Source of the DNA: an uncultured Acidobacteriota bacterium
GTDB lineage: Bacteria > Acidobacteriota > Blastocatellia > RBC074
Length of the DNA stretch: 64,000 nt
Direction of reading: 5' to 3'
Assembly: GCA_963796275.1 (NCBI GenBank)
Contig: CAWCKY010000004.1
Span: 736,001 to 800,000, forward strand
Below, in pieces: positions 2,257 through 34,398 of the stretch. The notes below the pieces were generated by a model. It was not told where the DNA came from. It did no database searches and saw only the letters and a program-made list of their open reading frames with translations. Positions within the stretch are counted from its first letter, which is position 1. Each line of letters opens with the position of its first letter. Position numbers and translations under genes: made by a program.

Positions 2257-4713
<2,457 letters not shown>

Positions 4714-6289: not shown

Positions 6290-6380
6290 ATGTGAGTCCT
6301 TTTCTATCGATGTTTCTCGATCATTGCCGCGAACGGTAGTAAGCGTAATTTCCACAAATGTCTCTTGTCCCCCGTCACAA

Positions 6381-9607: not shown

Positions 9608-12256
9608 ATGCCACTGACACGTCGCCTGACCAGCCTTTGGCGCAACCTGTTCCAGAAAGATCGACTTGATCGAGAGCTGGCGGAAGAGATTCGCGTTCAC
9701 CTGGAGATGCTCATCGATTTGAAGATCGAGGAGGGGCTCGATCCGGCGGCGGCTCGTCGCGCGGCCTTGATCGAGTTAGGCGGTGAAGATCAGGTAAAAG
9801 AACGCGTGCGGGAGGCAAGGATGGGGCAGCAATTGGAGGCATTGTTGCTCGATTTGCGCTTTGGCGCACGAATGTTACGCAAAACACCCGGATTCACGAT
9901 AATGGCTATCCTCATGTTAGCGCTGGGCATCGGTGCGAACACAGCGATCTTCAGCGTCGTGAACGCGGTCCTGCTGAGGTCGCTCCCCTATCGGGATACT
10001 GAACGTCTCGTGCTGGTCAGTTATACCTGGATGAATCTGGCAATCCACACCGCTTCGGTGGAGGAGTTTCTGGAATGGCGCGATCGGGAGAACGTGTTTG
10101 AACAGATCGCCGCGTATAAGCCCGATTTCATCGATCTGTCAGGAATCGGCGAACCGGAGCGGTTGGCTGCGGCACTGGTCTCCGCCCATCTCTTTGCGAC
10201 GCTCGGCGTCACGCCAGCGCTAGGTCGCGACTTCATCTCAGCAGAGGGCGAGGACGGCGGCCCGCCGGTTGTGATTCTGAGCGATGCATTGTGGCGGCGC
10301 CGCTTCGGCAGCGATCCGCAAATGATTGGCCGGGCGATCACGCTCGGAGGTCAAAGCCGGACAGTCATCGGAATCATGCCGCCTGGGTTTCGGCACCCGG
10401 AAGATACCGAGCTATGGATACCGCTCGCGATCAATCACCAACAATCCGCTGAGATATATGCGATCGGGCGCCTCAAGCGAGGGGTGACGCAGGAAGCAGC
10501 CAGGGCGGATTTGTCGGTCATTCTCGAGCGGCGGCGGCCGGTCTCTCCCCGCCGCTATGCGGACTCGCAGGTCAGGATAATCGGGCTGAACGAGAGCCTC
10601 GTCGCCAATGTACGTTTGTCCTTGCTGGTGCTTTTCGGAGCGGTCGCATTTGTTCTTCTCATCGCGTGTGCCAATGTCGCGAACCTGCTCCTGGCGCGTG
10701 CGGCAGTCAGACAAAAGGAGGTGGCGATCCGTGCGGCATTGGGAGCCGGGCGACTGCGCCTCGTGCGACAGCTACTGACCGAGAGTTTGATGCTCTCGCT
10801 TGCCGGTGGCACTGCCGGGCTGTTGTTGGCCCACTGGGTCGTCAAACTGCTCGTGTCGATGAGTCCAGCCGGAATCGTGCGCATCGAGGAGAGCGGCGTG
10901 GATGGCCGGGTGCTCGGTTTCACCTGTGTAGTGGTAGTTTTGACGGGCATTATCGTAGGCATCTTTCCCGCGCTGCAAACTTCGAAGACGGACATCAATG
11001 AAACGCTCAAGGCGCAGCCCGCGGCAGGAAGCCCACGATCCATGCGGGGCGTGGGCCGGGCGCTTCCGGCATTGATGATCGCCGAACTCGGGCTTGCACT
11101 GGTTTTACTCGTCGGCGCCGGGCTGATGATCAAGAGCTTCCTGCTTTTGATGACTGTTCCCAAAGGGTTTAATCCCGATGGCGTCCTGACGCTCAAGGTC
11201 GCGCCCAGCTTTGTCAAATACCCGAACGGATCGCCCCAACGCGGCGCGTATTACCAGGAAGTACTCGATCGCGTTCGATCCCTGCCCGGAATTCAGTCGG
11301 CGGGGCTGACCACCAACGTTCTCCCGTTCAGCGGAATACGCCGCATCGGATATTTTCAGATCGAAGGGCGAGCCACATTTAAACCGAGTAAGGAACACCT
11401 GGTCGCTCTCAGTTTCATCAGCCCCGATTACTTTCAAACGATGGGCATCCGGATTATTGCGGGGCGGCCATTCGATACACGAGATGGCTCAGCAGCGCCT
11501 AAGGTCGCAATCATCAGTCAAGAGATGGCGGAGCGCTACTTTCCCGGAGAGAGCCCGATCGGTCATCGGTTAGTCGGTGAACCGTTCTTGACGATTGTTG
11601 GAGTGGCGGAGGACGCGCGTCTTTATGGTTTGGAAAAAGAGATTTCTCCTGAATTTTATATTCCATACACACAAATTCTGAATGTGTGGGGAAACCTTCA
11701 TCTGGTTGTGCGAGCCGCCTCCAGTCTAAATAATCAAACCAATTCATCTGCCCTGGCAAATCGGGCGACCTCCATTCGCGATCAGGTGCGCGGTATCGAC
11801 CCGGGTGAGCCGGTCAGCCAGATCGTTACGATGGACGAACTCCTGTCGAATTCGGTCGCCGGGTGGCGCTTTCAGATGCTTCTGCTCGGAGTTTTTGCAG
11901 CGTTGGCCATGGTCATCGCGACGGTAGGCATTTACGGCGTCATATCGTATGCCGTCAATCAAGGAATGCGTGAGATCGGCATTCGGATGGCGTTGGGCGC
12001 GCAAGCGAGCGATATCGTGCGGATGGTGATCCGGCGGGCAATGGGTATCGCGTCGATCGGGGTGGCGCTGGGGTTGGTGGCGGCGCTCGCCCTGACGCGC
12101 GTGCTGAAGAATTTACTTTTCGGTGTCAGCCCGACCGATCCAGCGACCTTCGCGCTCATCGCATCATTACTGATCGGCGTCGCCCTGATTGCGAGCTATC
12201 TGCCCGCGCAGCGTGCGACCAAGGCGGATCCAACAACTGTATTGAAAAGCGAATGA
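9608..12256 (+). CDS. ADOP-family ABC permease with N-terminal permease-prefix domain
   Basis: [15 protein letters not shown]...[11 protein letters not shown] prefix followed by duplicated MacB/FtsX motifs; 882 aa. Confidence 0.95.
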
Positions 12257-13255: not shown

Positions 13256-16200
13256 TTAATTAACGTATGGAATGGTAATCAATGATTGTTGTCCGTTGGT
13301 CATGCTCGCACTGGTCCGCAACTGGATTGCCTGCGTGCCCAGGACCGCCCAAACCTCGATTCGCACTCTCCCGTTGGTCAGATTGGCAAAGCTGCCGCTG
13401 GCGGACAGCAGCCCGTTCGCATGCGTATATGCCTCCCAACCGCTTATGTCATTGGTAGCGAAATATCGATACGTCTCGACCCGGTCGAATGTCCCATCTC
13501 CGGTGAAATCGTAGCTGACGCGTACCTGGACGGCATCTCCCACGTGGGCGCCGGGATCTACATAGAGCGTGAACTGGGTACTCCGAGTGGGATCGAAAGC
13601 GGCAGTGAGACCGCTGACCGTGTAAACCAGCGAGTTTGCGGGCATTCCGTCGTGATTGGCTCCACCCGCGCCGGGAATAGTATCGGTCAGGGCGCCAGCG
13701 CCAGGTGTCGCGGAGAGCTGACCGGATGTGCCCACCGCCGCACCGTCGAGGACGTAGAGTGAGTTTGAGAAAGCTGTCCCTCCCCCGCTCACCTGCACGT
13801 TATCGAAAGATGAGGCATTCAGGCACCCGGCGGCATGGCTCGTCACCGCCAGACCGATGAAGACCTGGGCAGCCATGCTGATCGTGGTCGTTCCCACCTG
13901 CGTCCATGTCGAGCCATTCGATGACCTGTGGGCCGTGATTGTGTTGCCGCTGCGATTGAGGCGAACCCAGGCTGGAACTCCTGATGCCCCGCCTGAAGTG
14001 TGGGTGCTCAATCCGTTGGTCGACGTTCGCTGCTGGAAGGCCAGCCCATTGCCGGGAGTTACAGACATAAGCGCGTGTTTGGAGCCGGATGCCAGCGACT
14101 CACGGATCATGACTCCAGCCTTCGCCCATGGATCCGTACTTTGCACAGATGTCACCCTGGCGACTATCTGACCGTTTCCGATCAAGGACTGGTAGACGAA
14201 CTGAAAGCCATCTGCCGTTCCCCAGATATCGGCCCCCGCCCCCCTGACGGTGAAGGTGCCGGAGGAGTGGCTCGCAGATCCGGCCGCCCCCGTTGAGCCC
14301 ACGTCAGCGTTCTGCCAGAGGCTGGGCAGTCCCCCGCCGCCGCCGCCGCTGGGGAGCGTAGTGGCTCCGGCCTGGTTCGATGGAGAAGATGAACCCGCTG
14401 TGTTGACCGCCGTCACTCGGTAGAAGTATGCCGTCGACGCGGCCAGCCCTGTGTTGGAGTAAGCGGTTCCTGTAATCCCGCTTGCAATCTGGTTGCTGGG
14501 CGATGGAGTGAACCCGCTGGCGGTGCCGCGGAAAACGTTATATGTCGCCCCCGACGTCGCCGATGCCGTCCAGGTCAGATTGATCGATGAACTGGAGACC
14601 GCGACGGCGCTCAGGTTGGCTGGCGGTGACGGAACCGATGGCTGAGATGCGCCATTATCCGACACCTGCGCTCCCGCCGGAACAGTGAGCGAGGCGCCAT
14701 CAGAAAAGTTCACCGTGACGCTGCTCCCGCTGGGATTGAATGCCACATGGGTCACAACACCGGAGCTCGGATTTCTAAAGACTGCGTAGAATGGCCAGTC
14801 GGCTGTCACCGCGGTGTGAACGCGTCCCAGAGCCGCTAAACTCTGAAGCCACGCATACTGGTGCGCCCGCGTTTCACCATCTTCCGTAAATGTGGTGTTG
14901 TTCCAACGATTGATCGCATCTGCCGGATCGAAGAAAGCTTCATACATTTGCATCAGGTCTGGCCAGTCCGGGAGTCCGCCTCCGCTCAAGTTCAACACTT
15001 CGTTGAAATTCCTTTGGCTGTACGCCGGATCGCGTCCCAGGTAGAGCGAGGCCCCGGTGAAGGGCAGGAACTGTATCCCGTGCGCGAATCCGGGCTGTGC
15101 GCCGAACCAGGTCGCCGTATCAGATTTCGCATCGAATAGGTTCGTGATCTGTGTCCGATTGAAACCCGCCGGGAATGTGTTCACCGAGCCGGCGTTAAAC
15201 CAGTAATAGAATGCCGCATTGGTCTCCTGCGTGTAGAGCCAGATCCCGGCGTCACGCAGCTGTGTGTTACCCGTGAGCGCACCGAACATTATCATGCCGG
15301 CCCACGCGTTGATCGCCTCTGAGGTCGATTCCTCATTGCCTCCATCTCCGAAGGGCGCCTGCCCCGATGCCCACGAATGGCCCGCGTAGACATCGAAATT
15401 GCGCAAGAAGGGAAACAGGCTGTCGCCCCGTTCGATACTGGCGATATCGCGAAGGAGCAGATCGACCATCCCGCCCCAATTGTTCGATGAAATCCAGTTG
15501 CGATCGTAAAGCCCCACCATTGCTGCCGCTTGAATCCAGTAGCCATAATGAAAATGGTGGTCGACCAGCGCGGTGTCGCTGCCGAAACTTGCCGGATATC
15601 CGATCAGGCTACCCCAATTATCATCGTAATAGAACAGCCTTGTACTCTTGCCGTTGGCATTGAACCAGCTCTGCAACTGTCCCTTGAGGCTGTCGAGCAA
15701 ACTGTTGAATGCATTCTGATCGCTCGCTTGAGCGATGGGAAGCAGTTGGGCGATTCGATTCAGCTGCTTGCCCAGGAAATAGGTATCCCCGGCTGTGAAA
15801 TGATTGCCTTCATTGACCACGCTGTTGAGCAAACCCTGCAGGGTGGCTGCGTTGTAGTTGGCTGTCCGCGGCAAATAGGGGAGGATGCCGTTGAAGGTGT
15901 CGACGGTCGTAAAGGAGGTGCTGCTCAAGACCCTCATCGGGCCACGAGGGCTGGCATAGGTGAAGGCGGTATTGATGGGTCCCTGCAGGGCTGCATATTG
16001 ATGGGGATACAACGCCATGAGAAAGCCCTGACTCACCCCGTCCATCGATTGCGTTGTGACGGTGTAGGTCGTGCTCACCCGGCTGTTGTTCTGATCGTAA
16101 TCCCAACTGACGGCCGTATCGATCGGGAACGAGAAGGCTCGGCTGGCGAAAGTGCTGAGCGCCGATTGATTGGGCAGAATGGCCAGAGAAAAATAGGTGG

Positions 16201-16873
16201 CACCGCCCGCCAGGTGGCAGGTCAGAGTGGTCGTACCGATTCCACTCCAGGTGCTGCCACTCGGACCAAATAGTCCATAATTGTTGCCGGCGATGCTGAC
16301 GCCGAGAATGTTGCCGTTATTGGCGAAGATCGTGGGCTGACCGCTAAACGTGACCGTCGGGTTGCTGCCATTCGTCCTGACATAAACGAACGGCATGCCG
16401 CGGCCGACGCGAGTCGTCATGGGCCCGAAATTGAAATCGACTGCCCAATCACTGAAGTCGCTAACATTCACCACTCCGGCATTCAGACCCGTCACACCCA
16501 CCGTCAAATCCGGCTGAAATGGCTTATTGAACCAGGTCCCATTATTGTTGACGGTCGGATAGTATCCGGCAACTAATCCGTTTGCGGTCACCTGAATCGA
16601 GAGCGGCTCCGGAAACATGTAGATCGGGCCGGGAGCGAATCCGAGCGGGCTCCAATACTTAGAAGTCCAAAACTTGTGGGTCGGAATCGCGCCCCCATGT
16701 GTTTGATAGATCGTGCTCTGAGGAGCCGCCGCTCCCGCCGGCACCACCGTCGTATAGCTCCCCGCACCCGCTCCCACCGTCTGAGCGCTGACTGTGCCGG
16801 AGCAAATCCATAATGTTAGAAATAGCAAAGCAGACCGGCCGATGTTAAATGGGACAAAGTATCGCTGATGCAT
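13256..16873 (-). CDS. Secreted GH81 endo-1,3-beta-glucanase with FN3 and C-terminal beta-sandwich modules
   Basis: Signal peptide; DHHFHYGYW, GHSWASG, NEESTSEA GH81 motifs; FN3 (PANLSAVAVSSSSINLTW...YFYRVTAVN); GADIWGTADGFQF / WAKAGVMIRE module. Confidence 0.9.
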   Translation of the reverse strand: MHQRYFVPFNIGRSALLFLTLWICSGTVSAQTVGAGAGSYTTVVPAGAAAPQSTIYQTHGGAIPTHKFWTSKYWSPLGFAPGPIYMFPEPLSIQVTANGLVAGYYPTVNNNGTWFNKPFQPDLTVGVTGLNAGVVNVSDFSDWAVDFNFGPMTTRVGRGMPFVYVRTNGSNPTVTFSGQPTIFANNGNILGVSIAGNNYGLFGPSGSTWSGIGTTTLTCHLAGGATYFSLAILPNQSALSTFASRAFSFPIDTAVSWDYDQNNSRVSTTYTVTTQSMDGVSQGFLMALYPHQYAALQGPINTAFTYASPRGPMRVLSSTSFTTVDTFNGILPYLPRTANYNAATLQGLLNSVVNEGNHFTAGDTYFLGKQLNRIAQLLPIAQASDQNAFNSLLDSLKGQLQSWFNANGKSTRLFYYDDNWGSLIGYPASFGSDTALVDHHFHYGYWIQAAAMVGLYDRNWISSNNWGGMVDLLLRDIASIERGDSLFPFLRNFDVYAGHSWASGQAPFGDGGNEESTSEAINAWAGMIMFGALTGNTQLRDAGIWLYTQETNAAFYYWFNAGSVNTFPAGFNRTQITNLFDAKSDTATWFGAQPGFAHGIQFLPFTGASLYLGRDPAYSQRNFNEVLNLSGGGLPDWPDLMQMYEAFFDPADAINRWNNTTFTEDGETRAHQYAWLQSLAALGRVHTAVTADWPFYAVFRNPSSGVVTHVAFNPSGSSVTVNFSDGASLTVPAGAQVSDNGASQPSVPSPPANLSAVAVSSSSINLTWTASATSGATYNVFRGTASGFTPSPSNQIASGITGTAYSNTGLAASTAYFYRVTAVNTAGSSSPSNQAGATTLPSGGGGGGLPSLWQNADVGSTGAAGSASHSSGTFTVRGAGADIWGTADGFQFVYQSLIGNGQIVARVTSVQSTDPWAKAGVMIRESLASGSKHALMSVTPGNGLAFQQRTSTNGLSTHTSGGASGVPAWVRLNRSGNTITAHRSSNGSTWTQVGTTTISMAAQVFIGLAVTSHAAGCLNASSFDNVQVSGGGTAFSNSLYVLDGAAVGTSGQLSATPGAGALTDTIPGAGGANHDGMPANSLVYTVSGLTAAFDPTRSTQFTLYVDPGAHVGDAVQVRVSYDFTGDGTFDRVETYRYFATNDISGWEAYTHANGLLSASGSFANLTNGRVRIEVWAVLGTQAIQLRTSASMTNGQQSLITIPYVN

Positions 16874-17157: not shown

Positions 17158-18501
17158 ATGTTGACAGCAGGGATAACTGGCGCAGCCTCTCCGGCGCCGA
17201 CGGCTCAGGAGATTAGGGGCCTGCTGGAAAGAATTCTCAGCAGCAAACAATTCGCTAATGCGCCGAAGAAGCAAAAATTCCTCCAGCTGATCTGTGAGAC
17301 ATACATGGCGGGGCGGGCGGATGAGTTGAACGAGTATCTGATTGGGTACGAAGTATTCAATCGTCATGACACTTATAATCCTGCGCTCGACCCGATCGTT
17401 CGCGTCGGGGCTCACGAGTTGAGAAAGAAACTGGAGCATTACTACAAGAGCGAAGGGAAAAATGACGAGATCCTACTTGAAATTCCGGTCGGGAGTTACA
17501 TCCCTATCTTCACTCGGCGTCCCCTAGCATCGGAAACGATCGAGCCTGCCCAAGCGCCCAGTGCTCCCCCCGTTTCACCCATACGCCTCGGGATGTCCTG
17601 GTTCACCTTGATCGGTTTGGCATTTATCCTTTTGATCGTGGCGGTCATCTTGCTGGCATCCTCCAACCGGCAGTTACGACAGCAAATTAAAGAAGGTGTT
17701 CCGCCGAAGGAACTCACGGAGAATTATCGTCTGATCTGGGAGCCTTTCTTGAAGGATGGGTCTCCGACCCTGGTTGTGCTGAGCAATCCCACCGTCTATC
17801 GTTTTTGGAACAAGGCTGATCCTGACTCTTTGTCCTCCATATCCATAAATCTCACGGCGGCAGAGACCGCCGCTTTGGCAAAGACGCTCGGACGCGAACA
17901 ATTTGCCCTGAAGAATAATCTGCTGCCGCGGCTCGTACCCTCCTCCGACGAATATACCGGCCTCGGTGAGGCTGTCGGGCTCTATCGAATCGCTACGCTT
18001 TTCACGGGAATCGGCCGGAATATAAGGCTGAAGCAGAGCCGGACAGTCAGCGCCGAAGACTTGAAGAATAACCACGTAATTATGTTGGGAAGTGTCTGGG
18101 TCAACGAATGGTCGGGGAAGGTCTCGATCAAAGAAGATTTCGTTAGCAGCGCGGGCGGGACCATCCTGAACAAGAATCCGCTACCGGGAGAGCAACGAGA
18201 ATACAGCGCCAAATTCGATGGAACGACCGGTAGGCTGATCGAAGACTATAGCTTGATCACCATCAAGCCCAACATCTCGGATAAGCATACGGTTCTGGTG
18301 CTGGCCGGCACTCACAGCGAGGGGACTGAAGCTGCAGCCGAGTATTTAACCGGCGAGGATCGTTTAGCAGCCCTCAACCAACGGCTACTCGCATTTGATC
18401 CCACTCCCCCTAAATACTTTCAGGTCTTGCTTAAGGTCGCCATCGATAACGGGATTCCTACCACTATCTCGACCGTAACAGTTCACAAACTTCACTACTG
18501 A
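17158..18501 (+). CDS. Membrane-anchored putative regulator (N-terminal winged-HTH-like domain, one TM, extracytoplasmic domain)
   Basis: LERILSS..F, LNEYLIG.EVF.R, DPIVRV....LRKKL..YY, IP.GSYIP.F; TM WFTLIGLAFILLIVAVILLA. Confidence 0.7.
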   Translation: MLTAGITGAASPAPTAQEIRGLLERILSSKQFANAPKKQKFLQLICETYMAGRADELNEYLIGYEVFNRHDTYNPALDPIVRVGAHELRKKLEHYYKSEGKNDEILLEIPVGSYIPIFTRRPLASETIEPAQAPSAPPVSPIRLGMSWFTLIGLAFILLIVAVILLASSNRQLRQQIKEGVPPKELTENYRLIWEPFLKDGSPTLVVLSNPTVYRFWNKADPDSLSSISINLTAAETAALAKTLGREQFALKNNLLPRLVPSSDEYTGLGEAVGLYRIATLFTGIGRNIRLKQSRTVSAEDLKNNHVIMLGSVWVNEWSGKVSIKEDFVSSAGGTILNKNPLPGEQREYSAKFDGTTGRLIEDYSLITIKPNISDKHTVLVLAGTHSEGTEAAAEYLTGEDRLAALNQRLLAFDPTPPKYFQVLLKVAIDNGIPTTISTVTVHKLHY

Positions 18502-18717
18502 TTGAGAAATCAGACAAGAGCCATCGGCTCTTGCCACAATGTTGACCAATATCAGTTTCGTATTTCATGCACACAGCTACTGCGGTATTCAGACGGAGAA
18601 GTAGATATCAATATCGCATTCCAGCCGCATTAGCCTTTAGGAGCGCAGCGATTGCGCTGCAAGGATTGAGCTTAGCCCGGCCTTGATGGTTTTTGAAAAA
18701 ATAATCTAACCATAATG

Positions 18718-18756
18718 CATTACCTAAATGCATTACCTAAACAATCATTACCTAAA
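18718..18756. repeat. Three direct copies of CATTACCTAAA
   Basis: Copies at 18718, 18731 and 18746. Confidence 0.8.
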
Positions 18757-18770
18757 CTTTCGTCGAAATG

Positions 18771-18975
18771 AGCCCACGTAGTGGGCGATAGCATAAAGCC
18801 CGGGGTGGAGCCGAAGGCGTAACCCTGGGTTGGTCAACACCAAATCGCACGAGCCCACGAAGTGGGCGACAGACCTCGAATTTGCGCGCCTTGATCCCGA
18901 ACTCAGCCGCCCGTTTCACGTCACGAACCATATATTTATGACGCACTCAGACTTCGCCTCCACCCTGGGCTGGGC
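18771..18975. repeat. REP/BIME-like cluster, family A
   Basis: AGCCCACGTAGTGGGCGA, AGCCCGGGGTGGAGCCGAAGGCGTAACCCTGGG, AGCCCACGAAGTGGGCGACAG, TTCGCCTCCACCCTGGGCT. Confidence 0.75.
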
Positions 18976-19996
18976 TATATTCGCGTCTTGTCTGGGTGCA
19001 GCGTCAGTCCGGCTTGCGCCGTCCATTGCTGCACCAGCTCCAAGGCGTTTTGGGCTTCAGCTTCGCTGCGGCACAGGATCACGAAGTCATCGGCATAGCG
19101 CACCATCTCGAATCCGGCCGGCTTGCCATCAGCTGGTCCAGCGGATCGAGATAGATGTTAGACAGCAGCGGACTGATCACTGCTCCTTGCGGCGTCCCTG
19201 CTTCTGGCTTCCAGCTCTTCGCCAGCTCGCTCCAGGACTCCCTGTTTGAGGATACTTGCTGATCAAGCTCCAGCACTCGCCCGTCAGCGACCTTCTCCTC
19301 ACTCGCGGCATCAGCAACTGCTCGTGCGGAATCGTGTCGAAGTAGCTTTTCAGGTCGGCGTCGACGATCCACGTGTATCCTTCCTTGAGCAGTTGATCCA
19401 CTCGTCGCAGCGCATCTTTGCAGCCTCGTCCGGGTCGGAACCCATAGCTGTGTTCGGCGAAGTCCCGTTCGAAGATCGGTTCGATGACGTGGCCGCAGCG
19501 CCGTCTTGCACCACTCGGTCGCGCACCGTCGGTATACCCAGCGGTCGCTTCTCCCTGCTTCCTGGCTTGGCGTATCCATTCCCGCCGTACTCGCTTGCGG
19601 TTGATAACTCCCTTCCTGCAGCTGTTCGCGACAGTTGCTCAGGTTCTGCTTCCAAGTCTGCTGCTCGAACATCTCTATCGTCTGATGGTCTACTCCGGCC
19701 GCTCCGTCGTTGGCTTTCACTTTCGCAAACGCCGCCGCTACAGCATCCGCGGCGCGTACGACCTTATCTATCAGGCTGAACCATTTGCCTCCTTTTACCC
19801 CCTCTTCGAGGGCCGTCAACATCCGTTCCGTCCAGACCGCAGGTTCGACCCAGCCCAGCGGGCGCTGGATTTCTCCGGCTTGTTTAGCTTCTCAGGCACT
19901 GCCGCCGGTCTGTGTTTCCTTCGTGTCGGTCGTTCACGTCTCCACCTTCCTGCGCTCCCTTCGCTCCACTCCCGTTACGGAGCTTCATCGCTACTG
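18976..19996 (-). mobile_element. ltrA: Degenerate internal fragment of a group II intron (part of the ribozyme plus RT to just past YADD)
   Basis: ERMLTALEEGVKGGKWFSLIDKV, RPLGIPTVRDRVVQ, DADLKSYFDTIPH, GTPQGAVISPLLSNIYL, RYADDFVILC, LHPDKTRI in shifting frames; GTAGCGATGAAGC..GTAAC..GGAGCGAAGGG ribozyme segment; no maturase X domain or D5/D6. Confidence 0.85.
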
Positions 19997-20180
19997 TCGC
20001 GCGCTTCGCGGCCGATTCGGCGGCAAAGATGAGATGGAAAGATTATTTTTTCAAAGACCATCAAGACCGGGCTAATCCTCAATCGCCGCTATTGCGGCTT
20101 AGGAAATAACTCTTTATGCAACTGAAAAACGCTATTAATCTATAGCTGAGGAAAATCGGCACATCGCAAAACAGCGTTAA

Positions 20181-21398
20181 TCACATGAAATTCCGCGTAT
20201 GCAATCCAGCAAGCTCTGCAGCTTCCGCATCGCCGAATCCCAGCTTCTCCAACCGCCCCTTACGTCCTGCGTGCATTTCAGTCTTCAACATTTGCACATG
20301 AGCATAGCCGGCGGCAATATCCTGCGGTCTCCACGACCCCGCCGCCAGCAGAATCAACGCTTCAAACACCTCTTCGTTCAGTCCAGCAGTCTGGGCCAGC
20401 GCCTCGTGCCGCCTGGTGATGGCCATCGCCAAACGCTCGCGTAACGCGGGGTCACCCGCGAGCTGGTACTGCAAATGGCCGACGCCGAATGCCACGTGGC
20501 GTGCTTCGTCCTGCGCCACCAACCGAACGATCTCGCGCGTGAGCGGATCGGGCGCTCGTCGTTCCAGAAACCAGAGCAGGTTCAGAAACGTCCCTTCGCC
20601 CAGCACCGAAAGCAGAAACGATGCTAGCGCGAAGTCCGGCTCATCCAACAGCGTCTTGAGCGATTGCTGCCCGCTTACTGTAGATAAGCCCAGCTCTCTG
20701 CCGCGCAACGCCGCGCGGCGCGTGAAGACCTCGACGTGGCGTGCTTCATCCGCGATCTGTATGGCGAGCAATTGCAGGACTTCCCGAAAATGCGGATGAA
20801 TTTGGGCTATGAAGCGGGCCGGCACCTGCAATGCCGCATTCTCGTTCTCGATGAGATAGGTCATCACCTGGACGACCGCCTGCTCCACCTCTTCATCAAG
20901 CTCGAACGGCTCATCCCATTTAATCGCGGTCTGTGGATTCCATTGCGCAGCAGCCGCCTGCGCATAAAGTTTCGGGGCATTCTCGGCCCAAACCTGCTCT
21001 TTCGTCTGAAGAACATAGTGAAAAGCCGGCCCACCTGCTTCGACCGCGGCCCCGCGTGCGGCGAATCCCCAGTTGGCCGGCGGAGTCGCATTCACCGCAC
21101 CATCCACCCGCGCGTCGGCCCAACCCGCTCGCTCGGCCTGCCGCCAGCGCCCGTCCGCCGCGGCTCCGCGCACAATCCAGGCGACGAACCGATCATCTCC
21201 ATCCACATATTCATGCCCCTGCGCACGACACCAGCCGCGCAGATGCACGGCAAAATCCGGAGCGGCGGCGCGCACGCCGAGCCTGCCGCCGGCGGGCAAT
21301 TCGCGCAAGGCCCTTTTGAGAAGCATATGCGCGCCGGAGGCGAATGAGAGCGCCTCAATATCGATAATCCGAGATGGTGATGTTTCCGTGGTCGTCAT
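20181..21398 (-). CDS. TusA-like N-terminal domain fused to a ferritin-like di-iron domain
   Basis: LKRALRELPAGGRL.V...WCRAQGH (TusA/SirA pattern); ENE, DEARH, GEG, DEARH carboxylate di-iron ligands. Confidence 0.8.
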   Translation of the reverse strand: MTTTETSPSRIIDIEALSFASGAHMLLKRALRELPAGGRLGVRAAAPDFAVHLRGWCRAQGHEYVDGDDRFVAWIVRGAAADGRWRQAERAGWADARVDGAVNATPPANWGFAARGAAVEAGGPAFHYVLQTKEQVWAENAPKLYAQAAAAQWNPQTAIKWDEPFELDEEVEQAVVQVMTYLIENENAALQVPARFIAQIHPHFREVLQLLAIQIADEARHVEVFTRRAALRGRELGLSTVSGQQSLKTLLDEPDFALASFLLSVLGEGTFLNLLWFLERRAPDPLTREIVRLVAQDEARHVAFGVGHLQYQLAGDPALRERLAMAITRRHEALAQTAGLNEEVFEALILLAAGSWRPQDIAAGYAHVQMLKTEMHAGRKGRLEKLGFGDAEAAELAGLHTRNFM

Positions 21399-22236
21399 AA
21401 AACTTCAACTCCTCCACGGCCCGTTCTAGCATCTGATAGCCGGTAATGCGCCCGGGCCTCCACGCCTTCAATCCCTCCAGGTCAAGCAGCGGGCGAACCT
21501 CCGCATCATCGTAAGACATTCCCAGCAACAACTCGCGAAAGCGGTTCATAGGTTCGCGCGGCGCGTCATCGAGCGCGGTGAAATTGCAATGATCGTATGG
21601 AGCGGTCTGTGCCAGCACGCGCGTCGCTCCCGCCGGCAGCGTCCCTTCGTTGATAAATAGCAGGTGATTAGCGTCGATCATACAGGCAGCATCCACAGCG
21701 CCGGCAATCAGGGCGCGCGCTGCATCGCGCTCTCCTCCGATGTGATCTCCGTGTTTGCCGACCAGCATGTCATAGCGCACCACTTCGCAATCGACAAAGG
21801 GGTGCCCCCCATTCGCCCGCAAGTGAGAGAGCGGCAAAAGCGTGGCCTGCGGCGAATCTAACGCGCCGACGCCGATCTTCTTTCCCTTCAAATCTGCGAT
21901 GGATTGAATCGGTGAATCCGCTTTGATCACGATGACCGAAGTCAGGTTCTGATCCGTATCGCGCATCGCAATAGCTTCGGCTCGCTTCCCATGCGATCTG
22001 GCCAGCCGTTCCGCTCGCACCCACGCCAGCGGCGAGTTCCAGGCGATATGGAAGTGCCCCGCGAGATGCGCCTCGACCTGGCGCTCATAGTTTGAATAGA
22101 GCACATAATCAAAGGCCAAACCGTTTTTATTGAACCATCCTTTAAATCCTTCCCAGATAGTGACCACTTTCGGATCGTAAGCAACAGCACCAAGTATCAA
22201 AGTTTCGTTATTCATAATAAATTTGTGGTTAACCAT
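21355..22236 (-). CDS. PhnD/SsuA/transferrin-fold (PBP type II) protein without a signal peptide
   Basis: SVIVIKADSPIQSIADLKGKKI, DSPQATLLP; no hydrophobic N-terminus; overlaps the next gene by 44 nt. Confidence 0.8.
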   Translation of the reverse strand: MVNHKFIMNNETLILGAVAYDPKVVTIWEGFKGWFNKNGLAFDYVLYSNYERQVEAHLAGHFHIAWNSPLAWVRAERLARSHGKRAEAIAMRDTDQNLTSVIVIKADSPIQSIADLKGKKIGVGALDSPQATLLPLSHLRANGGHPFVDCEVVRYDMLVGKHGDHIGGERDAARALIAGAVDAACMIDANHLLFINEGTLPAGATRVLAQTAPYDHCNFTALDDAPREPMNRFRELLLGMSYDDAEVRPLLDLEGLKAWRPGRITGYQMLERAVEELKFYDDHGNITISDYRY

Positions 22237-22280
22237 AATTTCAATGAATTCAAGAGAAATCAGAGCTCAACCGACAATCA

Positions 22281-23420
22281 TTAAAAAAGCGGCAGGCCCG
22301 TTAGCGACTTGCCGATGAAATCGTAGAGCGCGTCCGCGGTCGGAGCCATGACGACCGAGGCGCGCGCATCGCGAAAGTTCCGCTCCACGCCGATTTCCTT
22401 TCGGAATGCCGCGCCGCCGCACAGCCTCATCGCGAGATCGGTAACTTCCGTGGCGATCTCGCCTGCTGCGGCTTTGCTTTCGAGCACCCTCATCATCGCG
22501 TCCGCGCGTCCGCTTGCGAGCGCGGCGAGCGCGTCATCCAACAATGCTCGCAGGAGGTCGACCTTGATCTTCATCTTCGCGAGATATGCGCGATTAATCG
22601 GCTGGTCGGCCAGCGTCTGGTTGAGGTGCTCATAACGCGTCGTCGTCAGGTGTGTGATGGTCTTCTGGAGCGCCGCCTCGCTGATGCCGAGCGAAATGGA
22701 CGCGCTCATCAACTGAAAATAAGGCAGGACGGTTCCCATCATAATCTCGAAGCCCTGCCCATCCGCGCCGAGTATCGCATTCGCGCCGACGATCACGGCC
22801 TCCGCCTGCACGGGCGACGAGTGATTGCCGCGCATGCCCATTCCGTTAAAAGGCGCGTTGATGCTCAATCCCGCGGCATTTGCCGGCACCAGCCAGATCG
22901 TGCTCGCGCCATCGGCCGCTAACGGCTTACTCGACCAGACGTACGAATCGGCCTGCCCGGCGGATGTCGCCCAGCTCTTCTTGGCGTCCAGACGCACGCC
23001 GTTATCCGCTCTGATCGCCGTGCTCAGCGGCGCCCAGAATTGGCTGCGCGAACCGCTCTCGGAGAAAGCGAGCGTAGTGATATGTTGGCCGCGCGCTACG
23101 TCTGCACGCACGTCGCGCGGGCCGAACGCTTCGATGACGGCCGCGCCGCAATAATGCATGCAAACGATCATCGCCGTCGAAGCGCATTCGCGGGAGATGC
23201 GCTCGACCACCTGCACGGCGGCGCGATGTCCTTCGCCCAGACCGCCGATATTCTTGCTGCTGATAAGACCCAGCAGACCGGCTTGTCCCATGGCCGTCAG
23301 CGCGGCGCGCGGAAAAGCGCCGGAGCTATCTGTTTCAGCGGCCGCAGGCGCGATGATTTCTATTGAAATGCGCTCGATTAGCTCGAGCCAGGAAGGTGCA
23401 TTCGTGGCTACCATATACAT
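22281..23420 (-). CDS. Acyl-CoA dehydrogenase-superfamily flavoprotein, non-canonical
   Basis: LAFSESGS, KSWAT, GMRG, ERNFRDAR motifs; MAPT in place of IYEGT; GGAGG RBS. Confidence 0.9.
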   Translation of the reverse strand: MYMVATNAPSWLELIERISIEIIAPAAAETDSSGAFPRAALTAMGQAGLLGLISSKNIGGLGEGHRAAVQVVERISRECASTAMIVCMHYCGAAVIEAFGPRDVRADVARGQHITTLAFSESGSRSQFWAPLSTAIRADNGVRLDAKKSWATSAGQADSYVWSSKPLAADGASTIWLVPANAAGLSINAPFNGMGMRGNHSSPVQAEAVIVGANAILGADGQGFEIMMGTVLPYFQLMSASISLGISEAALQKTITHLTTTRYEHLNQTLADQPINRAYLAKMKIKVDLLRALLDDALAALASGRADAMMRVLESKAAAGEIATEVTDLAMRLCGGAAFRKEIGVERNFRDARASVVMAPTADALYDFIGKSLTGLPLF

Positions 23421-23696
23421 AACCTCCGCCCGGATAGACTGATGTCTTGTTGTATAGCTCTGGCTTCGGAGCCCACGCGCTCCCAGGAGGCGAGTGACTA
23501 ACGAAGGCAGGAGAATCGCATCACGTGCGATTGTGGATTAACTCATCGGTAGAATCCCATATGATTCCTTTATTCGTACTTAAAGTGGATGAGAAGTGAT
23601 GGTATACGAGAAGAGTGTGAAAAACAAAAAAGCCTGGATCGTCGCGTTGAATTAGCCGTATATCTTTGGCCTTTGCAAAATAAATGCAACACCATA

Positions 23697-23780
23697 AATC
23701 CCCCCCGAGGTAGTCGGTCGATCGTTAAGTCCCAACCTAACTGATCCTCTTTTCACCAATCCCGCCCATTCCGTCGGTGG
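23697..23780. repeat. REP-like element family B (degenerate)
   Basis: AATCCCCCCGAGGTAGTCGGTCGATCGTTAAGTCCCAACCTA matches 44724-44767. Confidence 0.7.
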
Positions 23781-23854
23781 TTTTCGTGAAAGATGCTGCT
23801 TCACGCGAAAATTCAGGCAATGATAAGCCTACTACCTAACGCCATATTTTTTTC

Positions 23855-23884
23855 TTGCACCTGTGGTAAAAACCTTTGTAAAAT
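23855..23884 (+). promoter_or_regulatory. sigma70-like promoter TTGCAC-N18-TAAAAT
   Basis: Position and spacing conserved with 213-242. Confidence 0.5.
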
Positions 23885-23972
23885 TATCGAGTTGGAAGGC
23901 GTTAGGGTAAGTAATACGTTCTTTTCGATTCGCTCGAGATCATTTCAAATCGAACTCTTCGTCTGAGGAGCC

Positions 23973-25658
23973 ATGTCAATGATTCACCTCGCACGCATCA
24001 TTCTTCCCGGCATCATCAATTCACTATTTTTCGCCGTCATCCTTGCCCAGAACCCGTCTGTGCGCACGGCCTCGATCAGCGGGCGAGTGACGGTCGATGG
24101 AAAGCCGGCGCCCAACGGCCTGGTGACCGTGGTCGAGGTCGATCCCAAAATAGAAGGCGCTCGCATCATTCAATCGAACGGCCGCGAAGCCGTCGATCGG
24201 CTCGGATATAAAGCCACGACCAATGGGGATGGCAGCTACCTTCTCACCGGCTTACCGGCAGGACAATTTAGAATTTCGGCTTTATCGCTTGCATACGTAC
24301 CGGATGATAAAGCTCAGGATGAAGCAGGCACAAAACAGATAACGTTGGACGATGGCGAAGCACGCGAGGATGTGGACTTCGCGTTGATACGAGGCGGGGT
24401 GGTTACGGGCCGCGTCACTGATGATGAGAACAGGCCTCAGATCGGGAGGACTGTCAGGTTGACCCTTCTGCTCGACGATGGTCAGAAAAGAGAGGTTTCC
24501 CGGAGAAGAGGACAATCGTTTGAAACCGATGACCGCGGCGTTTTTAGAATCTACGGCCTGCGAGCAGGACGATATATCGCCAACGCGGAAGCCGAGAACT
24601 ACAGATTGGATGGTAAGAAGTTTGAACTCACCTATCATCCGAACACGGCCAATGAAGAGCAAGCACGAGTCTTCGAGGTTAAAACTGGGAGCGAGATTGC
24701 GGGCATCGATATCAGGTTGGTGAATCTCCCGAAGACCTATGAGATCCTGGGCCGAGTGACTGAAGCTGAGAACGGAAAGCCAGTCCCGCAAATCAGGGTC
24801 TATTGCAGAGCGGTGACGAAGCCAGAGGATATATATGGCAACGGTGTGTCGGACGGGCTAACCGACCTTCAGGGCAACTTTCATATGGCCGGTTTGAAAC
24901 CGGGTAAATATAGAGTCGTCTTGAACTCTAGGAATTCTGATCATCCTTTCTATGGCGAGGGTAAATATTTCGAGATAAATAGCGAGAACGCCAGTGGAAT
25001 CGATTTTATAGTCAACCGGGGCGGCACAGTCAGCGGAGTGGTCGCATTTGAAGGCGGCAAAGACAGATCAATCGAAGCCAAACTCTATCAAACCCAGGTT
25101 TGGATGATCGTCACGCGCGATCTCGGTAAAGGGCCTAAGACGGAAGCAACAAATTTCTCACAGCTTTCTCCGGACGGGAGCTTTCACTTCATCGGATTAC
25201 CACCGGGAAAACTGCGTTTAGGTTTTTTGAACAGCAATGGCCCATTCTTCGTGCTTCGCGTTGAACGCGACGGTATCGTACAAACCGATGATATCAATGT
25301 CGGGCCCGGAGAGAACATCTCTGGAGTAAAGCTCATCACCGCGCACGGCGACGGAGTTATTCGCGGTGAGGTGAAAGTCACGGGTGGAACGCTACCTGAG
25401 AACTGCGATCTCTCTGTTATGGCCAGGCTGATCGGTCAAAGTTTCGGCCAGCCAGTGAGGGCCGACGGGAAGGGCAGATTTCTGATCGAGGGGCTACTAC
25501 CCGGCGAATATAGCTGGGAAATAAGTTACTCGCTTAAACCCGGAATGAGGACGACGCAGTCGGTTGTCGATCAAAATGTTTATGTCAGAAGCGGAGCCGA
25601 TACCACTGCCACCATTACACTGAACCTGAACGGTAAGATCAATAGAGCCGATAAATGA
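23973..25658 (+). CDS. Carboxypeptidase regulatory-like domain protein (exported, repeated beta-sandwich)
   Basis: GAGGAG RBS; signal peptide; repeated SGRV...GxF...GLPPGxY units; full-length paralog of 374..1474. Confidence 0.85.
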   Translation: MSMIHLARIILPGIINSLFFAVILAQNPSVRTASISGRVTVDGKPAPNGLVTVVEVDPKIEGARIIQSNGREAVDRLGYKATTNGDGSYLLTGLPAGQFRISALSLAYVPDDKAQDEAGTKQITLDDGEAREDVDFALIRGGVVTGRVTDDENRPQIGRTVRLTLLLDDGQKREVSRRRGQSFETDDRGVFRIYGLRAGRYIANAEAENYRLDGKKFELTYHPNTANEEQARVFEVKTGSEIAGIDIRLVNLPKTYEILGRVTEAENGKPVPQIRVYCRAVTKPEDIYGNGVSDGLTDLQGNFHMAGLKPGKYRVVLNSRNSDHPFYGEGKYFEINSENASGIDFIVNRGGTVSGVVAFEGGKDRSIEAKLYQTQVWMIVTRDLGKGPKTEATNFSQLSPDGSFHFIGLPPGKLRLGFLNSNGPFFVLRVERDGIVQTDDINVGPGENISGVKLITAHGDGVIRGEVKVTGGTLPENCDLSVMARLIGQSFGQPVRADGKGRFLIEGLLPGEYSWEISYSLKPGMRTTQSVVDQNVYVRSGADTTATITLNLNGKINRADK

Positions 25659-29347: not shown

Positions 29348-31834
29348 TCACTCTTCCCGCAGCGCGATCGTCGGGTCGAGCTTCGCCGCACGGAGCGCCG
29401 GCAATCCCGATGCTATTGCTCCTATGATCAAAAAGAGCATTGCCATTGCTGCGAATGTAACCGGGTCGGTCGCTTTGACTCCGACCAGCATGCTGCTCAT
29501 CGCGCGCGTGAAGCCGAATGCCGCGACCATCCCGATTGCGATGCCTATCATACTCAGGTGCAGTCCCTGTCCGACCACCAGTTTGAAGATGCTTTCCGGC
29601 GTCGCGCCGAGCGCCATCCGGACGCCGATCTCCGACGTTCGCTGCCGCACGACGTTCGACAACACGCCATACAGCCCGATGCTAGCCAGTAGCCCCGCGA
29701 TGACCGCAAAAACGCCGATGAGCAGGAGCGAGAAGCGCGTATTCGTCTGCGCCCGTTTCACCAGCGCTTCCATCGGCTGCATTTCGGTGATCAGCAGGCT
29801 CGGTCTGAACTTTGCGACCTCGGCGCGAATCGCCGCGGCGTACTGCGCCGGGTCGCCCTTGGTGCGAACACCCCAGTAGGTGGCCAGGCGTCTCATATTA
29901 AATCCATTGGTAAAATAGACCTGTTCGCGCCCGGGCTCAGCCAGCGTTGTTTGGCGCTGATGGGCGACGACGCCGATCACTTCGACCCATTGCGGCTCCA
30001 CTGAGGCAAAGCGTACCAGAATCCGCTTCCCGACTGCAGATTCGTTGGGAAAGGCCTTAGCCGCGAAAGACTGGTCGATGATCGCTACTTTCCTCTCCGG
30101 CGTATCGTCCGCTTCGGTGAATACGCGTCCAGCAATGAGCGGCGTGCGGAGCGTTTCGAAGTAACCGGGAAGTACGACCTGCCAATCAGCCGCCTGAAAC
30201 TTGCTCGGATCGGAGAGCGCCTCCGCCATACCCCATCGGAGAGGACTGAACCCTCCCGCAAGCGGGAACGGATAGGAGGCCGTCACGTTTTCGACGCCAG
30301 GCAGCGCGCTCAACCGCCCGTGGAGATCGCGCATGAAAGCGGCGCGCTCCTGCGGCTGGCTCAGATTGCCGGCGCCAAGCAATTGAAACGCGAGAACATT
30401 GTCCGGATCATAACCCAGGTCGATTCGCTGCAATGCGATGAAGCTGCGGATCATCAGGCCCGACCCGATAAGTAATATGAACGAAAGCGCCACCTCTGTA
30501 ACGACCACGGTATTGCGCAGCCATCGCCCGCCTCCCAGCCCGCCCGTGCGACCGATGCCGCGCAGGATGTTCATCACATCCGGCTTCGATGCCTGCAATG
30601 CCGGCGGGAGGCCGAAGATGACGGCCGCCGCCAGCCCCGCCAACGCCGTAAATGCGAGCACAACCGGATCGATCGTAATCGAACCGAGGCGCGGCAAGTT
30701 CGCGGGCGCGATGGCGAGCAGTTGACGGATGCCATACCACGCCAGTCCGAGTCCGAGGAGCGTGCCGGCTCCCGCCAGCAGCAAGGCTTCCACCAGCATC
30801 TGGCGGACCAGGCGCCACCAGCTCCCGCCGAGCGCCGCGCGTATCGCGAGCTCGCGTCGGCGCTGGGACGCCCGCACGAGCAATAGATTTGCCACATTCG
30901 CGCATGCGATGAGCAGAAGAAAGACCACCGCGCCGGTCAGGGCGAGGATGGCGGGTCGAACCTCTTCGACCAGATACTGATGCATCGGCTCCAACCGGAT
31001 ATGGAAGCCAGCGCCCTCCAGTATCGTGTCGCCCTTTCTTTTCTCAGCTCCGACCACATCGCTTTCGGCCTGCGCCTGCTCGATTGTCGCACCTTCTTTT
31101 AAACGGCCGATCACTCGATGAATTACCATGTACCGGTTGGCGGTATCGTAAGTGAGGCGTGCGGCATACCAGATGTCCGGCGTGCGTTCCTCATTCAGCC
31201 TTGGCGGAAGTAGCAGCTCGAACTCCGGCGCCAGCACACCCACGATCAGAGGGCCGCTGCTTCCGCCACTAAACATGCGGTTGCCGATAATGGCTGTACG
31301 CCCACCGTAGCGCTGTTGCCAGTATGAGTAACTGAGGATTGCGATGGTCGGCGTCCCTGGCACGACGCCCGCCTGTTGTTCCGGTTCTTGCGGAGGTGGC
31401 GGTTCACCATCCGCTTCCACAAAATCACGGCCAAAGGCTATTCGCGCGCCGAGCAGCCGGAAGAAGTTGGGCGTGACCGATGCAAAACTGATCTGCTCAC
31501 GCGTGCCATCCTCCTTTGTGATGGTGGTGCGGCTAGTATAGACGCCAGCTACGCTCTCAAACGTCGTCTTCGTCGCTTTGCGAAAGTCGATGAAATCGGT
31601 GTTTGAAAACCGCCAGTCTTTAACATTGCGCTTCCTCATTTCCACATCAGCAAATACCAGCCGATCAGGATTTTCATAGGGAAGCGGCCTGAGCAGCACA
31701 ACGTTAGCGACGCTGAAGATGGCCGTGTTCGCGCCGATGCCGAGAGCGAGCGTGATAATGGCGATCAAGGTGAAGGCCGGCGACTTCACCAGCATCCGTA
31801 CGCCGTAGCGCAAGTCTTGCCACAAGGTCTGCAT
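29348..31834 (-). CDS. ADOP-family ABC permease
   Basis: [15 protein letters not shown] start after GAGGAG; duplicated MacB/FtsX motifs. Confidence 0.95.
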
Positions 31835-31952
31835 ATTTCTCCTCTGGGAGGCGCCTGGGTACGCATCGCTCCAGCGTGCGGCGTTCCAGACGGCGGATTT
31901 ACACGTTTCACAATGAGGCAATGATCACAAGTTGGATAGTCGAGCCGCTCAC

Positions 31953-34355: not shown

Positions 34356-34398
34356 CTTTCCTCCGAGTTGAGTTGTTATAACAAAAGCCATCCGGCGT

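Follow-up and report, generated by a model that had tools for sequence, protein, structure and literature searches.

The window analysed here is a stretch of 64,000 nucleotides of DNA from an uncultured Acidobacteriota bacterium. Its minus strand carries three co-oriented open reading frames, encoding an ACAD-fold protein without the catalytic Glu (22281..23420, 379 aa), a leaderless PhnD/PtxB-fold protein (21355..22236, 293 aa) and a fusion of a TusA-like domain with a ferritin-like di-iron domain (20181..21398, 405 aa). The tight packing described in the original prediction, with a 44-nt gap followed by a 44-nt overlap, was found as claimed. The overlap between the second and third genes is real, since a GGAGGAG ribosome-binding site (21409..21415, minus strand), located within the 3' end of the second gene, lies 10 nt upstream of the third start at 21398 and homologues align from residue 1. 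For the first and second genes, homologues and ribosome-site spacing favour the starts 23414 and 22215, respectively, in which case the first gap becomes 65 nt. An Rfam search of positions 18400-24100 (E up to 1) matched no RNA element, and promoter and terminator counts around the trio were at chance level, with none on the minus strand.

The three genes occur together in 28 of 31 close loci from six bacterial phyla, and in none of the 49 distant PhnD-like loci. A co-oriented ABC ATPase lies within 3.5 kb in 1/31 close loci versus 19/49 distant loci, and neither phnE nor any other phn gene was present among the 65 neighbours scanned. These counts agree with the original prediction, which had reported a trio free of ABC permease or ATPase, had proposed a search for its co-occurrence across phyla, and had named phnCE beside the PhnD-like gene as contrary evidence. 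NifS and SseA occur among the neighbours.

The ACAD fold of the first protein was confirmed by Pfam (E 3e-19). The catalytic Glu, which we take to be residue 376 in MCAD and 254 in IVD numbering, is lost family-wide; in the alignment, A359 stands at the former position and an invariant F235 at the latter. The FAD site appears to be kept, with S120, E121, K148, T152, G335, G336, R350, D351 and T361 all invariant; these residues presumably correspond to the FAD-site motifs of acyl-CoA dehydrogenases. The protein matches true acyl-CoA dehydrogenases (E 1e-52) more strongly than KijD3-type oxygenases (1e-27), and the best match of its C-terminal 70 residues is a type-2 ACAD (5gj7). A KijD3-type assignment through an M-x-P motif was unsupported, with 3m9v and 3mxl ranking low. 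Scores fall under all group D flavin monooxygenase cut-offs (SfnB, 102 of 431 bits; DszC, 60 of 850), and no flavin reductase gene lies within the operon. The best family by far is that of Rv1679 (NF049984), although the score of 395.7 bits stays below the cut-off of 600.

The PhnD-type fold of the second protein was confirmed by Pfam (E 6e-31) and by a model with pLDDT 94, for which Foldseek returned PhnD/PtxB and related oxyanion-binding proteins (E 5e-22, TM ~0.7), AioX and ArrX among the matches. Its score against the Rv1680 family (NF049985) is 240.5 bits, below the cut-off of 400. Residues Y50, D93, S128, H162-G163-D164, E169 and H216-C217 are invariant in the family, the His216-Cys217 pair (codons 21586..21591, minus strand) in 39/39 sequences. 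Alignment to 5jvb places Cys217 at the position of PtxB Tyr208, the ligand-capping tyrosine according to PMC5700983, and thus at the spot to which methylphosphonate directs its methyl group in PtxB. Among the oxyanion ligands of PtxB, only Y55 and S130 are kept, as Y50 and S128; T131, S132 and the cap Y208 are replaced, and the equivalent of H160 is ambiguous between two alignments. Since only these two members of the ligand set are kept, oxyanion binding is uncertain as judged from the alignment. Thus, the window protein shares its fold, Y50 and S128 with PtxB, PhnD, AioX and ArrX, but differs from them in having neither leader nor transporter, an invariant Cys for the cap Tyr, an inserted H-G-D loop, the loss of T131/S132, and enzyme fusions in its relatives. 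No signal peptide or lipobox was detected in any of 35 PhnD-fold proteins; together with the single co-oriented ATPase in the close loci, this led to the rejection of a transport role.

The third protein consists of the TusA-like domain (21165..21374, about residues 9-78) and the ferritin-like domain (20244..20990, about residues 137-385), both assigned below Pfam cut-offs (TusA-like, E 1.6e-5). Its model has pLDDT 89, and Foldseek returned R2lox/R2 with a TM to target of ~0.6. The ferritin-like domain carries a putative E...ExxH...E...ExxH ligand set on a four-helix bundle (E184, E218, H221, E268, E298 and H301), which is invariant in 43/43 sequences and backed by the model and Foldseek. W153, D297 and H221 are likewise invariant and presumably match the electron-transfer triad of R2, with F225 at what we take to be the radical-Tyr position. 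R2lox, a Mn/Fe protein, and class I R2, the best fold matches, share all six ligand positions with the window protein; it differs in its identity of only ~20%, an R2lox NCBIfam score of 34.6 bits against a cut-off of 194, a predicted N-terminal docking domain and an invariant C-terminal tail. From the ESM Atlas came only unnamed relatives of the protein and a DUF455 cluster.

TusA sulfur carriers bear a persulfide Cys in an N-terminal C-P motif. Across 30 sequences, residues 1-56 of the TusA-like domain contain no Cys column, and C57 is present in 22/30; in place of the sulfur-carrying role originally linked with this fold, a docking surface is predicted. Specifically, docking of the third protein with the PhnD-fold protein scored 0.84, compared with 0.00 for the best of 3 controls (the docking-score mark was attained by 116/157 solved pairs and 2/215 mismatched pairs); the runs share at least 96% of contacts, with a partner pLDDT of 90. 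All confident contacts fall in residues 19-123, including invariant W56, R58, R84 and E120, with the TusA-like domain contributing most of the predicted surface and the ferritin-like domain making no confident contact. Interface conservation is 0.64 versus 0.51 for the rest on the TusA side, and 0.58 versus 0.62 on the PhnD-fold side; it adds little to the docking case, since the PhnD-fold side is no more conserved than its remainder. The prediction for the Cys-less domain, which has a fold in common with the TusA/YedF carriers, is thus that it docks onto the PhnD-fold protein rather than carrying sulfur. YedF itself is listed as a predicted selenium gene in PMC9312934. Taken together, the departures from family norms that had been pointed out in all three window proteins are family-wide, with the catalytic Glu, the signal peptide and the persulfide Cys all lost.

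Elsewhere, an Rv1681-family radical SAM enzyme stands in for the di-iron gene. The radical SAM gene was found in 0/5 di-iron genomes and the di-iron gene in 0/4 radical-SAM genomes; in the tested genomes, the two are alternatives. Eight proteins have the binding protein fused in frame to a radical SAM domain, none of them with a TusA-like domain, and three have it fused to an FMO-type flavin monooxygenase. The radical SAM genes of two loci (L094 and L095) encode an N-terminal domain homologous to the TusA-like domain (E 1e-8 and 7e-8; L098, E 0.16). A general need for the TusA-like domain in all unfused systems was not supported, as there are stand-alone radical SAM genes of ~275 aa that do not encode it (L117, L119 and metagenome loci). 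Near some such genes, a separate TusA gene was seen.

By profile comparison, the genes of the trio stand as sisters to the Rv1679–Rv1681 families, which are themselves uncharacterised. In the Rv1678-Rv1681 cassette (NF049986, NF049984, NF049985 and NF049973), as in the window, an ACAD gene comes immediately before the gene of a leaderless PhnD-fold protein that has the H-G-D and H-C motifs. The window differs in scoring under both cut-offs (396/600 and 240/400), in a di-iron instead of a radical SAM third gene, in having no Rv1678-type membrane gene, and in its tie to the selenocysteine trait, the mycobacterial-type sister genome G789 having no selD. L098 scores above both cut-offs (NF049984, 638 bits; NF049985, 493 bits), and the window's own genome contains no match to the Rv1681 radical SAM gene at E 1e-25. 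Literature searches returned no characterisation of the cassette and no characterised pathway matching the trio. The earlier statement that no system matches therefore stands as regards characterisation, but kin exist, in the sub-cut-off Rv1679 and Rv1680 profiles and the Rv1681-type radical SAM swap.

The trio is almost confined to selenocysteine-using genomes, with selD present in 37/38 trio genomes and selA in 42/45. The selenoneine (senABC) pathway was rejected, as senB occurs in just 4/45. Genes of the sel set lie within 8 kb of the trio in 4/31 loci versus 0/49 controls; in L122, selD, selA, selB and the trio are all co-oriented, and in L008 the trio is directly followed by selB. This adjacency spans Burkholderiales, Acidimicrobiia, Streptomyces, Acidobacteriota and the genome G757. 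In a Streptomyces sample, selD was present in 41/221 genomes, but in 5/5 of those with a full-length di-iron-type binding protein; in four of these five the distance to selD is 12-15 kb, and the four may represent one island. The trio is broken (L090) in G438, which is negative for selD and selA. The only genome with selD alone, G317, is a many-contig assembly whose selD has an in-frame TGA, and G789, with no selD match, keeps the module. Genome-level tests, in which related genomes are not independent, gave p values of 0.35, 0.021 and 0.001; they are weak because selD is common in the background (237/301 in the window's phylum and 234/331 in Actinomycetota, 71–79%), and adjacency carries the weight of the selenium link. 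No selenium gene adjoins the trio in the window. Selenocysteine inside the trio was rejected for the loci seen, since tblastn over 80 loci revealed no more than two stops, both away from the conserved Cys positions; in L101, a flagged TGA falls outside the aligned region. The self-contained oxidative pathway first proposed thus survives as a conserved, transporter-free oxidative module, but the genomes tie it more to selenium (selD/selA/selB) than to the sulfur chemistry then considered.

We consider it somewhat more likely than not that selenium is handled by the module in one form or another. A more specific reading, to which we give somewhat less than an even chance, is that the trio salvages selenium oxidatively from a methyl-selenium oxyanion and so feeds selenocysteine synthesis. 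The ACAD-fold protein would act as a heteroatom oxygenase, presumably of the MsuC/DszC kind, that converts methylselenol or a related compound to methylseleninate. Held in the cleft of the PhnD fold, this oxyanion would point its methyl group at Cys217. The di-iron protein, predicted to dock through its TusA-like domain, would together with the PhnD-fold protein cut the C-Se bond, the oxidant coming from the di-iron centre or, in sister systems, from a radical SAM enzyme, and the freed selenium would be handed to SelD. The scheme would resemble known chemistry in its logic only: MsuC, SfnB, DszC and KijD3 are ACAD-fold heteroatom oxygenases, and the C-P bond of methylphosphonate is cleaved by the radical SAM PhnJ or the di-iron PhnZ, so that a flavin step on the heteroatom might likewise precede radical SAM or di-iron bond breaking, while the trio belongs to none of these groups.

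Selenium salvage is supported by trio conservation, the missing importer and signal peptide, the selD/selA link, the docking score, the di-iron/radical SAM swap, the fusions and the position of Cys217. It is weakened by the high selD background, the di-iron domain lying outside the predicted interface, G789, the window trio having no adjoining selenium gene, the closeness of the ACAD protein to true acyl-CoA dehydrogenases with no operon flavin reductase, and ArsM-like, TIGR04282 and Acr3/ArsC neighbours in some loci. Methylated selenium is a tentative substrate candidate, with arsenic and protein maturation as live rivals. According to a 2016 review, methylselenol demethylation has no identified pathway (PMC5187540), and literature searches found no description of an enzyme freeing selenium from a small methylated compound. 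That the trio is the missing methylselenium demethylase, with an oxyanion-binding fold as catalytic His-Cys subunit, interchangeable di-iron and radical SAM partners attached either by fusion or by way of a TusA domain lacking Cys, and FMO-fused versions in microbial eukaryotes, is a bolder proposal that we regard as rather doubtful.

Among the alternatives, the di-iron or radical SAM protein could be a maturase or radical activator that modifies Cys217 or the H-G-D loop, the modified PhnD-fold protein being the catalyst, as formylglycine enzymes and anSME act on sulfatases, and R2 and radical SAM activases on ribonucleotide reductases. The predicted docking and the in-frame fusion would be expected if the substrate were a protein, R2lox and R2 are the nearest folds, W153, D297, H221 and F225 match the presumed R2 positions, and the selenium link is compatible. 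However, this would leave the flavoprotein and the FMO fusions unexplained, a 1:1 fusion fits turnover better than one-time maturation, and the di-iron domain makes no confident contact; we judge it unlikely. It is distinctly unlikely, in turn, that selenophosphate is consumed for a new selenium small molecule, bound by the PhnD fold and given its C-Se bond by the di-iron or radical SAM enzyme. Near-complete selD dependence, the phosphate-like ions bound by the PhnD fold, and glycosyltransferases and an epimerase in radical-SAM clusters speak for such a product, as does senABC, itself found by selD adjacency (10.1101/2022.04.13.486033); yet the trio's association with selA is as close as that with selD, the sole selD-only genome is the fragmented G317, and G789 is selD-negative.

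A methylated arsenic or sulfur oxyanion as substrate, with an indirect selenium link, is similarly improbable. It would accommodate G789, the NifS and SseA neighbours, AioX and ArrX among the fold matches, an ArsM-like methyltransferase in 5 metagenome loci with radical-SAM-type clusters, TIGR04282-family genes (labelled arsenosugar glycosyltransferases) beside radical-SAM-type systems, and Acr3 with ArsC near four Micromonospora loci. These four loci come from one genus, in contrast to the broad sel adjacency, and ArsM-like and DUF2064 genes occur in 0/31 close loci. Maturation or repair of formate dehydrogenase or another Mo/Ni enzyme, with the trio following selD only by way of these enzymes, is suggested by fdh genes adjoining the trio in L008, L020 and L093, hydrogenase and hyp genes in L003 and L007, and a Mo oxidoreductase in L018, but is very improbable given that the trio is absent from most selD-positive genomes (36/41 in Streptomyces), that L122 adjoins a GrdB-type selenoprotein and not fdh, and that the ACAD fold would have no evident role. 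Finally, an ordinary orphan phosphonate-binding protein beside an ordinary acyl-CoA dehydrogenase, as the folds suggest and as is assumed in the public annotation of Rv1680 and FadE16 (for instance in PMC8562490 and PMC11250799), is largely refuted by the missing signal peptides, the rarity of ABC ATPases (1/31), the loss of both catalytic Glu positions and the fusions to cytoplasmic enzymes.

Whatever the substrate, literature searches found no description of di-iron and radical SAM enzymes replacing each other on a binding-protein fold put to new use, with a TusA domain as the dock. New here are the predicted Cys-less TusA-like dock, the invariant Cys217 in place of the PtxB cap Tyr, and the binding-protein fusions to radical SAM and FMO enzymes. 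The module would also give a handle on the Rv1679-Rv1681 families. Under the salvage reading, selenium recovery from methylated forms becomes directly testable; the three proteins are soluble, an interface between two of them is predicted, Cys217 is a candidate catalytic residue, and non-pathogenic Streptomyces and Micromonospora can be cultured as hosts.

The three genes in the window all lie on the minus strand: the ACAD-fold flavoprotein gene (22281-23420; favoured start 23414), the PhnD/PtxB-fold binding-protein gene (21355-22236; favoured start 22215) and the TusA-like/di-iron fusion gene (20181-21398). The first two starts are favoured by ribosome sites and homologues, and a strong ribosome site marks the start at 21398. 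These minus-strand ORF coordinates bear out the spacing described in the original prediction. Within the 9.46-Mb genome, neither the binding-protein gene nor the di-iron gene has a second match, and other matches to the flavoprotein reach at most 26% identity. Among the matches listed, the closest homologues come from Blastocatellia. The trio is a genuine system, as yet uncharacterised, and represents a variant form of the catalogued Rv1679-Rv1681 cassette. In the literature on the gene names and on selenium with these folds, outside subscription journals and the selD-overlap table in the supplement of 10.1101/2022.04.13.486033, we found no account of the trio and no function for Rv1679-Rv1681.

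Scanning of genome contigs for binding-protein homologues gave at least 80 loci, those listed comprising 31 close (at least 57% identity) and 49 distant ones. All three genes are matched in 28 of the 31 close loci, whereas the di-iron gene occurs in none of the 49 distant loci (among the matches listed), so the co-occurrence across phyla that had been proposed as a check is found. The exceptions are L022, with only the binding protein, and L029 and L030, at contig ends; in several of the 28 (L001, L005, L007, L017, L019 and L025) the di-iron gene is fragmentary. The close loci listed belong to Acidobacteriota, Actinomycetota, Pseudomonadota, Planctomycetota, Chloroflexota and Myxococcota, and the module is patchy, being present in 8/301 genomes of the window's phylum, 7/221 Streptomyces and 14/331 Actinomycetota. 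A co-oriented ABC ATPase lies within 3.5 kb in only 1 of 31 close versus 19 of 49 distant loci listed, in line with the absence of an ABC ATPase noted originally. Beyond a single genus, no further gene family recurs next to the module. At locus L124 (genome G696, 3355-6657) the gene order is rearranged to di-iron, ACAD, binding protein. Two copies are decaying. Genome G438, which matches neither selD nor selA, has at L090 (4893-10562) a fragmented ACAD gene next to transposase-like ORFs and a frameshifted binding-protein gene; at L022 (7837-8846) nothing of the trio but the binding-protein gene and a remnant of 52 aa is left beside selD, selB and selA.

The best family of the flavoprotein is NCBIfam Rv1679 (396 bits against a cut-off of 600), and the FAD-site motifs are invariant across its homologues. 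In an alignment to short-chain ACAD, Ala359 occupies the position that we take to be that of the catalytic Glu and invariant Phe235 the alternative one, while Pro233 and Gln236 replace the Asp and Arg that presumably contact CoA. Since these positions are replaced, the sequence makes an acyl-CoA dehydrogenase role unlikely. Overall, true ACADs still give it a higher score than known oxygenases do, so an oxygenase role is one that we infer.

The binding-protein model (pLDDT 94) matches the folds of PhnD, PtxB, HtxB, AioX and ArrX, and all 35 homologues examined lack a leader. As aligned, Y50 and S128 retain two PtxB ligand positions, whereas PtxB T131 and S132 are lost, and invariant Cys217 aligns to PtxB Tyr208, described in PMC5700983 as a pocket cap pointing at the methyl of methylphosphonate. 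Invariant His216 and the inserted loop H162-G163-D164 contribute with Cys217 to a site that looks catalytic.

The third gene is swappable between the di-iron and radical SAM types. Specifically, an Rv1681-family radical SAM gene accompanies the same ACAD and binding-protein pair at L094, L095 and L098, and the enzymes of the first two carry a homologue of the TusA-like domain at the N terminus. Rv1681 has no match in five di-iron genomes, and the di-iron gene has none in four radical-SAM genomes, nor in G076, which holds neither gene. A radical SAM gene is present in four genomes whose binding-protein gene has no di-iron neighbour, one of which, G731, has a di-iron type at one locus and a radical SAM type at another. 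Eight proteins are in-frame fusions of the binding protein and a radical SAM domain, those with a named source being from Chloroflexi; their binding-protein parts share 62-67% identity with that of the window, and none has a TusA-like domain. In a quickly built tree of 59 binding-protein sequences, drawn with duplicates and four Micromonospora loci left out and no clade test, radical SAM partners fall at three places, one nested within di-iron types. Additionally, P0183, P0215 and P0252, two of them from eukaryotic transcriptomes and the third from a metagenome, join the binding protein to a monooxygenase of FMO type, although one has artefact-like ends. These three belong to one clade of homologues extended at the N terminus, part of them from eukaryotic transcriptomes, which also includes P0211 (partial) and the unfused P0173 and P0216.

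The nearest folds of the di-iron protein are R2lox and R2, and the six expected di-iron ligands are invariant in 43 sequences. The N-terminal TusA-like domain, unlike TusA, lacks a Cys at what we take to be the persulfide position. From the binding-protein fusions, docking of this domain on the binding protein was predicted before the pair was folded. The predicted pair scored 0.84 versus 0.00 for the best control; the docking-score mark, met by 116/157 solved versus 2/215 mismatched pairs, applies roughly to a pair of this kind. The runs share at least 96% of contacts (partner pLDDT 90), and all confident contacts lie within di-iron protein residues 19-123. The model thus supports, but does not show, binding between the two. 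Stand-alone radical SAM genes lacking the domain occur and speak against its being required everywhere. A 395-aa DUF455 cluster in the ESM Atlas, commonest in Campylobacterota, matches window 20184-21398 (0.93 by features) and is possibly a distant relative.

Among genomes with the binding protein, selD is found in 37/38, selA in 42/45 and senB in 4/45 (G304, one row of the alignments, is included in the genome counts). Those without selA are G317, which is selD-positive, G438, with the broken trio, and G477, a radical-SAM type with no ACAD adjoining its binding protein. The selD background is high in the window's phylum (237/301) and Actinomycetota (234/331), where 13/14 carriers have it, the exception being mycobacterial-type G789. 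In Streptomyces, selD occurs in 41/221 overall versus 5/5 genomes with a binding protein that is full-length and of di-iron type; in three of these five genomes the full trio was checked. With centre genomes excluded, Fisher p was 0.35, 0.021 and 0.001, values that overstate the association because related genomes are not independent. Adjacency is stronger evidence: 4/31 close loci contain selD, selA or selB versus 0/49 controls (among the matches listed), and at L122 selD, selA, selB and the trio are all co-oriented. In the window no selenium gene adjoins the trio; its genome carries selD with an in-frame TGA, selA, senB and tRNA-Sec on other contigs.

Metagenome radical-SAM clusters contain an ArsM-like methyltransferase with TGA and, directly after the Rv1681-like gene, an Lrp/AsnC-domain ORF of about 80 aa. 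The latter has an in-frame TGA at position 59 (61 in L156) in 11/14 copies (L126:3128, L127:2664, L130:1846, L132:3875, L133, L134, L137, L139, L141, L148 and L156) and Cys in three (L151, L152 and L154). A predicted hairpin starts about 13-16 nt past the TGA in 4/8 copies tested. The ORF is a candidate selenoprotein; the available text of a 2026 selenoproteome review contains neither 'Lrp' nor 'AsnC'.

Given a common mechanistic thread and the selenocysteine link, the module may salvage selenium from a methyl-selenium oxyanion, a reading we hold tentatively. A flavin heteroatom step by the ACAD fold or FMO would be combined with an oxyanion-type pocket placing a thiol over the substituent and with a strong oxidant, di-iron or radical SAM. 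The precedent is methylphosphonate, which either radical SAM PhnJ or di-iron PhnZ cleaves. Maturation of the binding protein itself would fit the predicted docking and the fusions, but is unlikely. Biosynthesis from selenophosphate is a weaker candidate still. Equally doubtful is an arsenic or sulfur substrate, towards which several neighbours point and away from which the adjacent sel genes do: TIGR04282-family genes within radical-SAM clusters and a TIGR04283 gene in G477, both labelled arsenosugar glycosyltransferases, Acr3 and ArsC within 8 kb in four Micromonospora loci, and, in some loci, NifS and SseA genes. Formate dehydrogenase and hydrogenase genes, also neighbours in some loci, would suit maturation of a metalloenzyme, which is quite improbable. 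Ordinary transport or beta-oxidation, for all the PhnD and ACAD folds, has hardly any likelihood next to the missing leaders, rare ATPases and replaced Glu.

Several loci show further arrangements. At L118 (2-8052), about 290 kb from the binding-protein gene of G477, an Rv1681-like radical SAM domain is fused C-terminal to a phosphoesterase-like domain; the surrounding cluster has MTAP-like, TIGR04282, TIGR04283 and FAD oxidoreductase-like genes. Metagenome loci L127, L128, L130, L133, L136, L138, L151 and similar ones hold a larger radical-SAM-type cluster of varying membership, including a second radical SAM/SPASM gene, TusA, DsrE, NUDIX, DinB, the TGA-containing ArsM-like gene, a DoxX-like membrane gene, DUF2064 and GT2. 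In 6/42 loci, ACAD and radical SAM genes occur with no binding protein in view. In the window, the trio is followed some 360 nt downstream by a frameshifted reverse transcriptase remnant (19079-19822, minus strand; weak RVT_1 match, no Rfam match), which from its sequence we take to be of group II intron type. Elsewhere in the window, 13256-16873 (minus strand) encodes a secreted-looking 1205-aa GH81 glucanase that carries fn3 and DUF1349 domains, and 9608-12256, 29348-31921 and 31953-34418 hold three long paralogous ABC permease genes that are MacB-like by sequence and do not belong to the trio.
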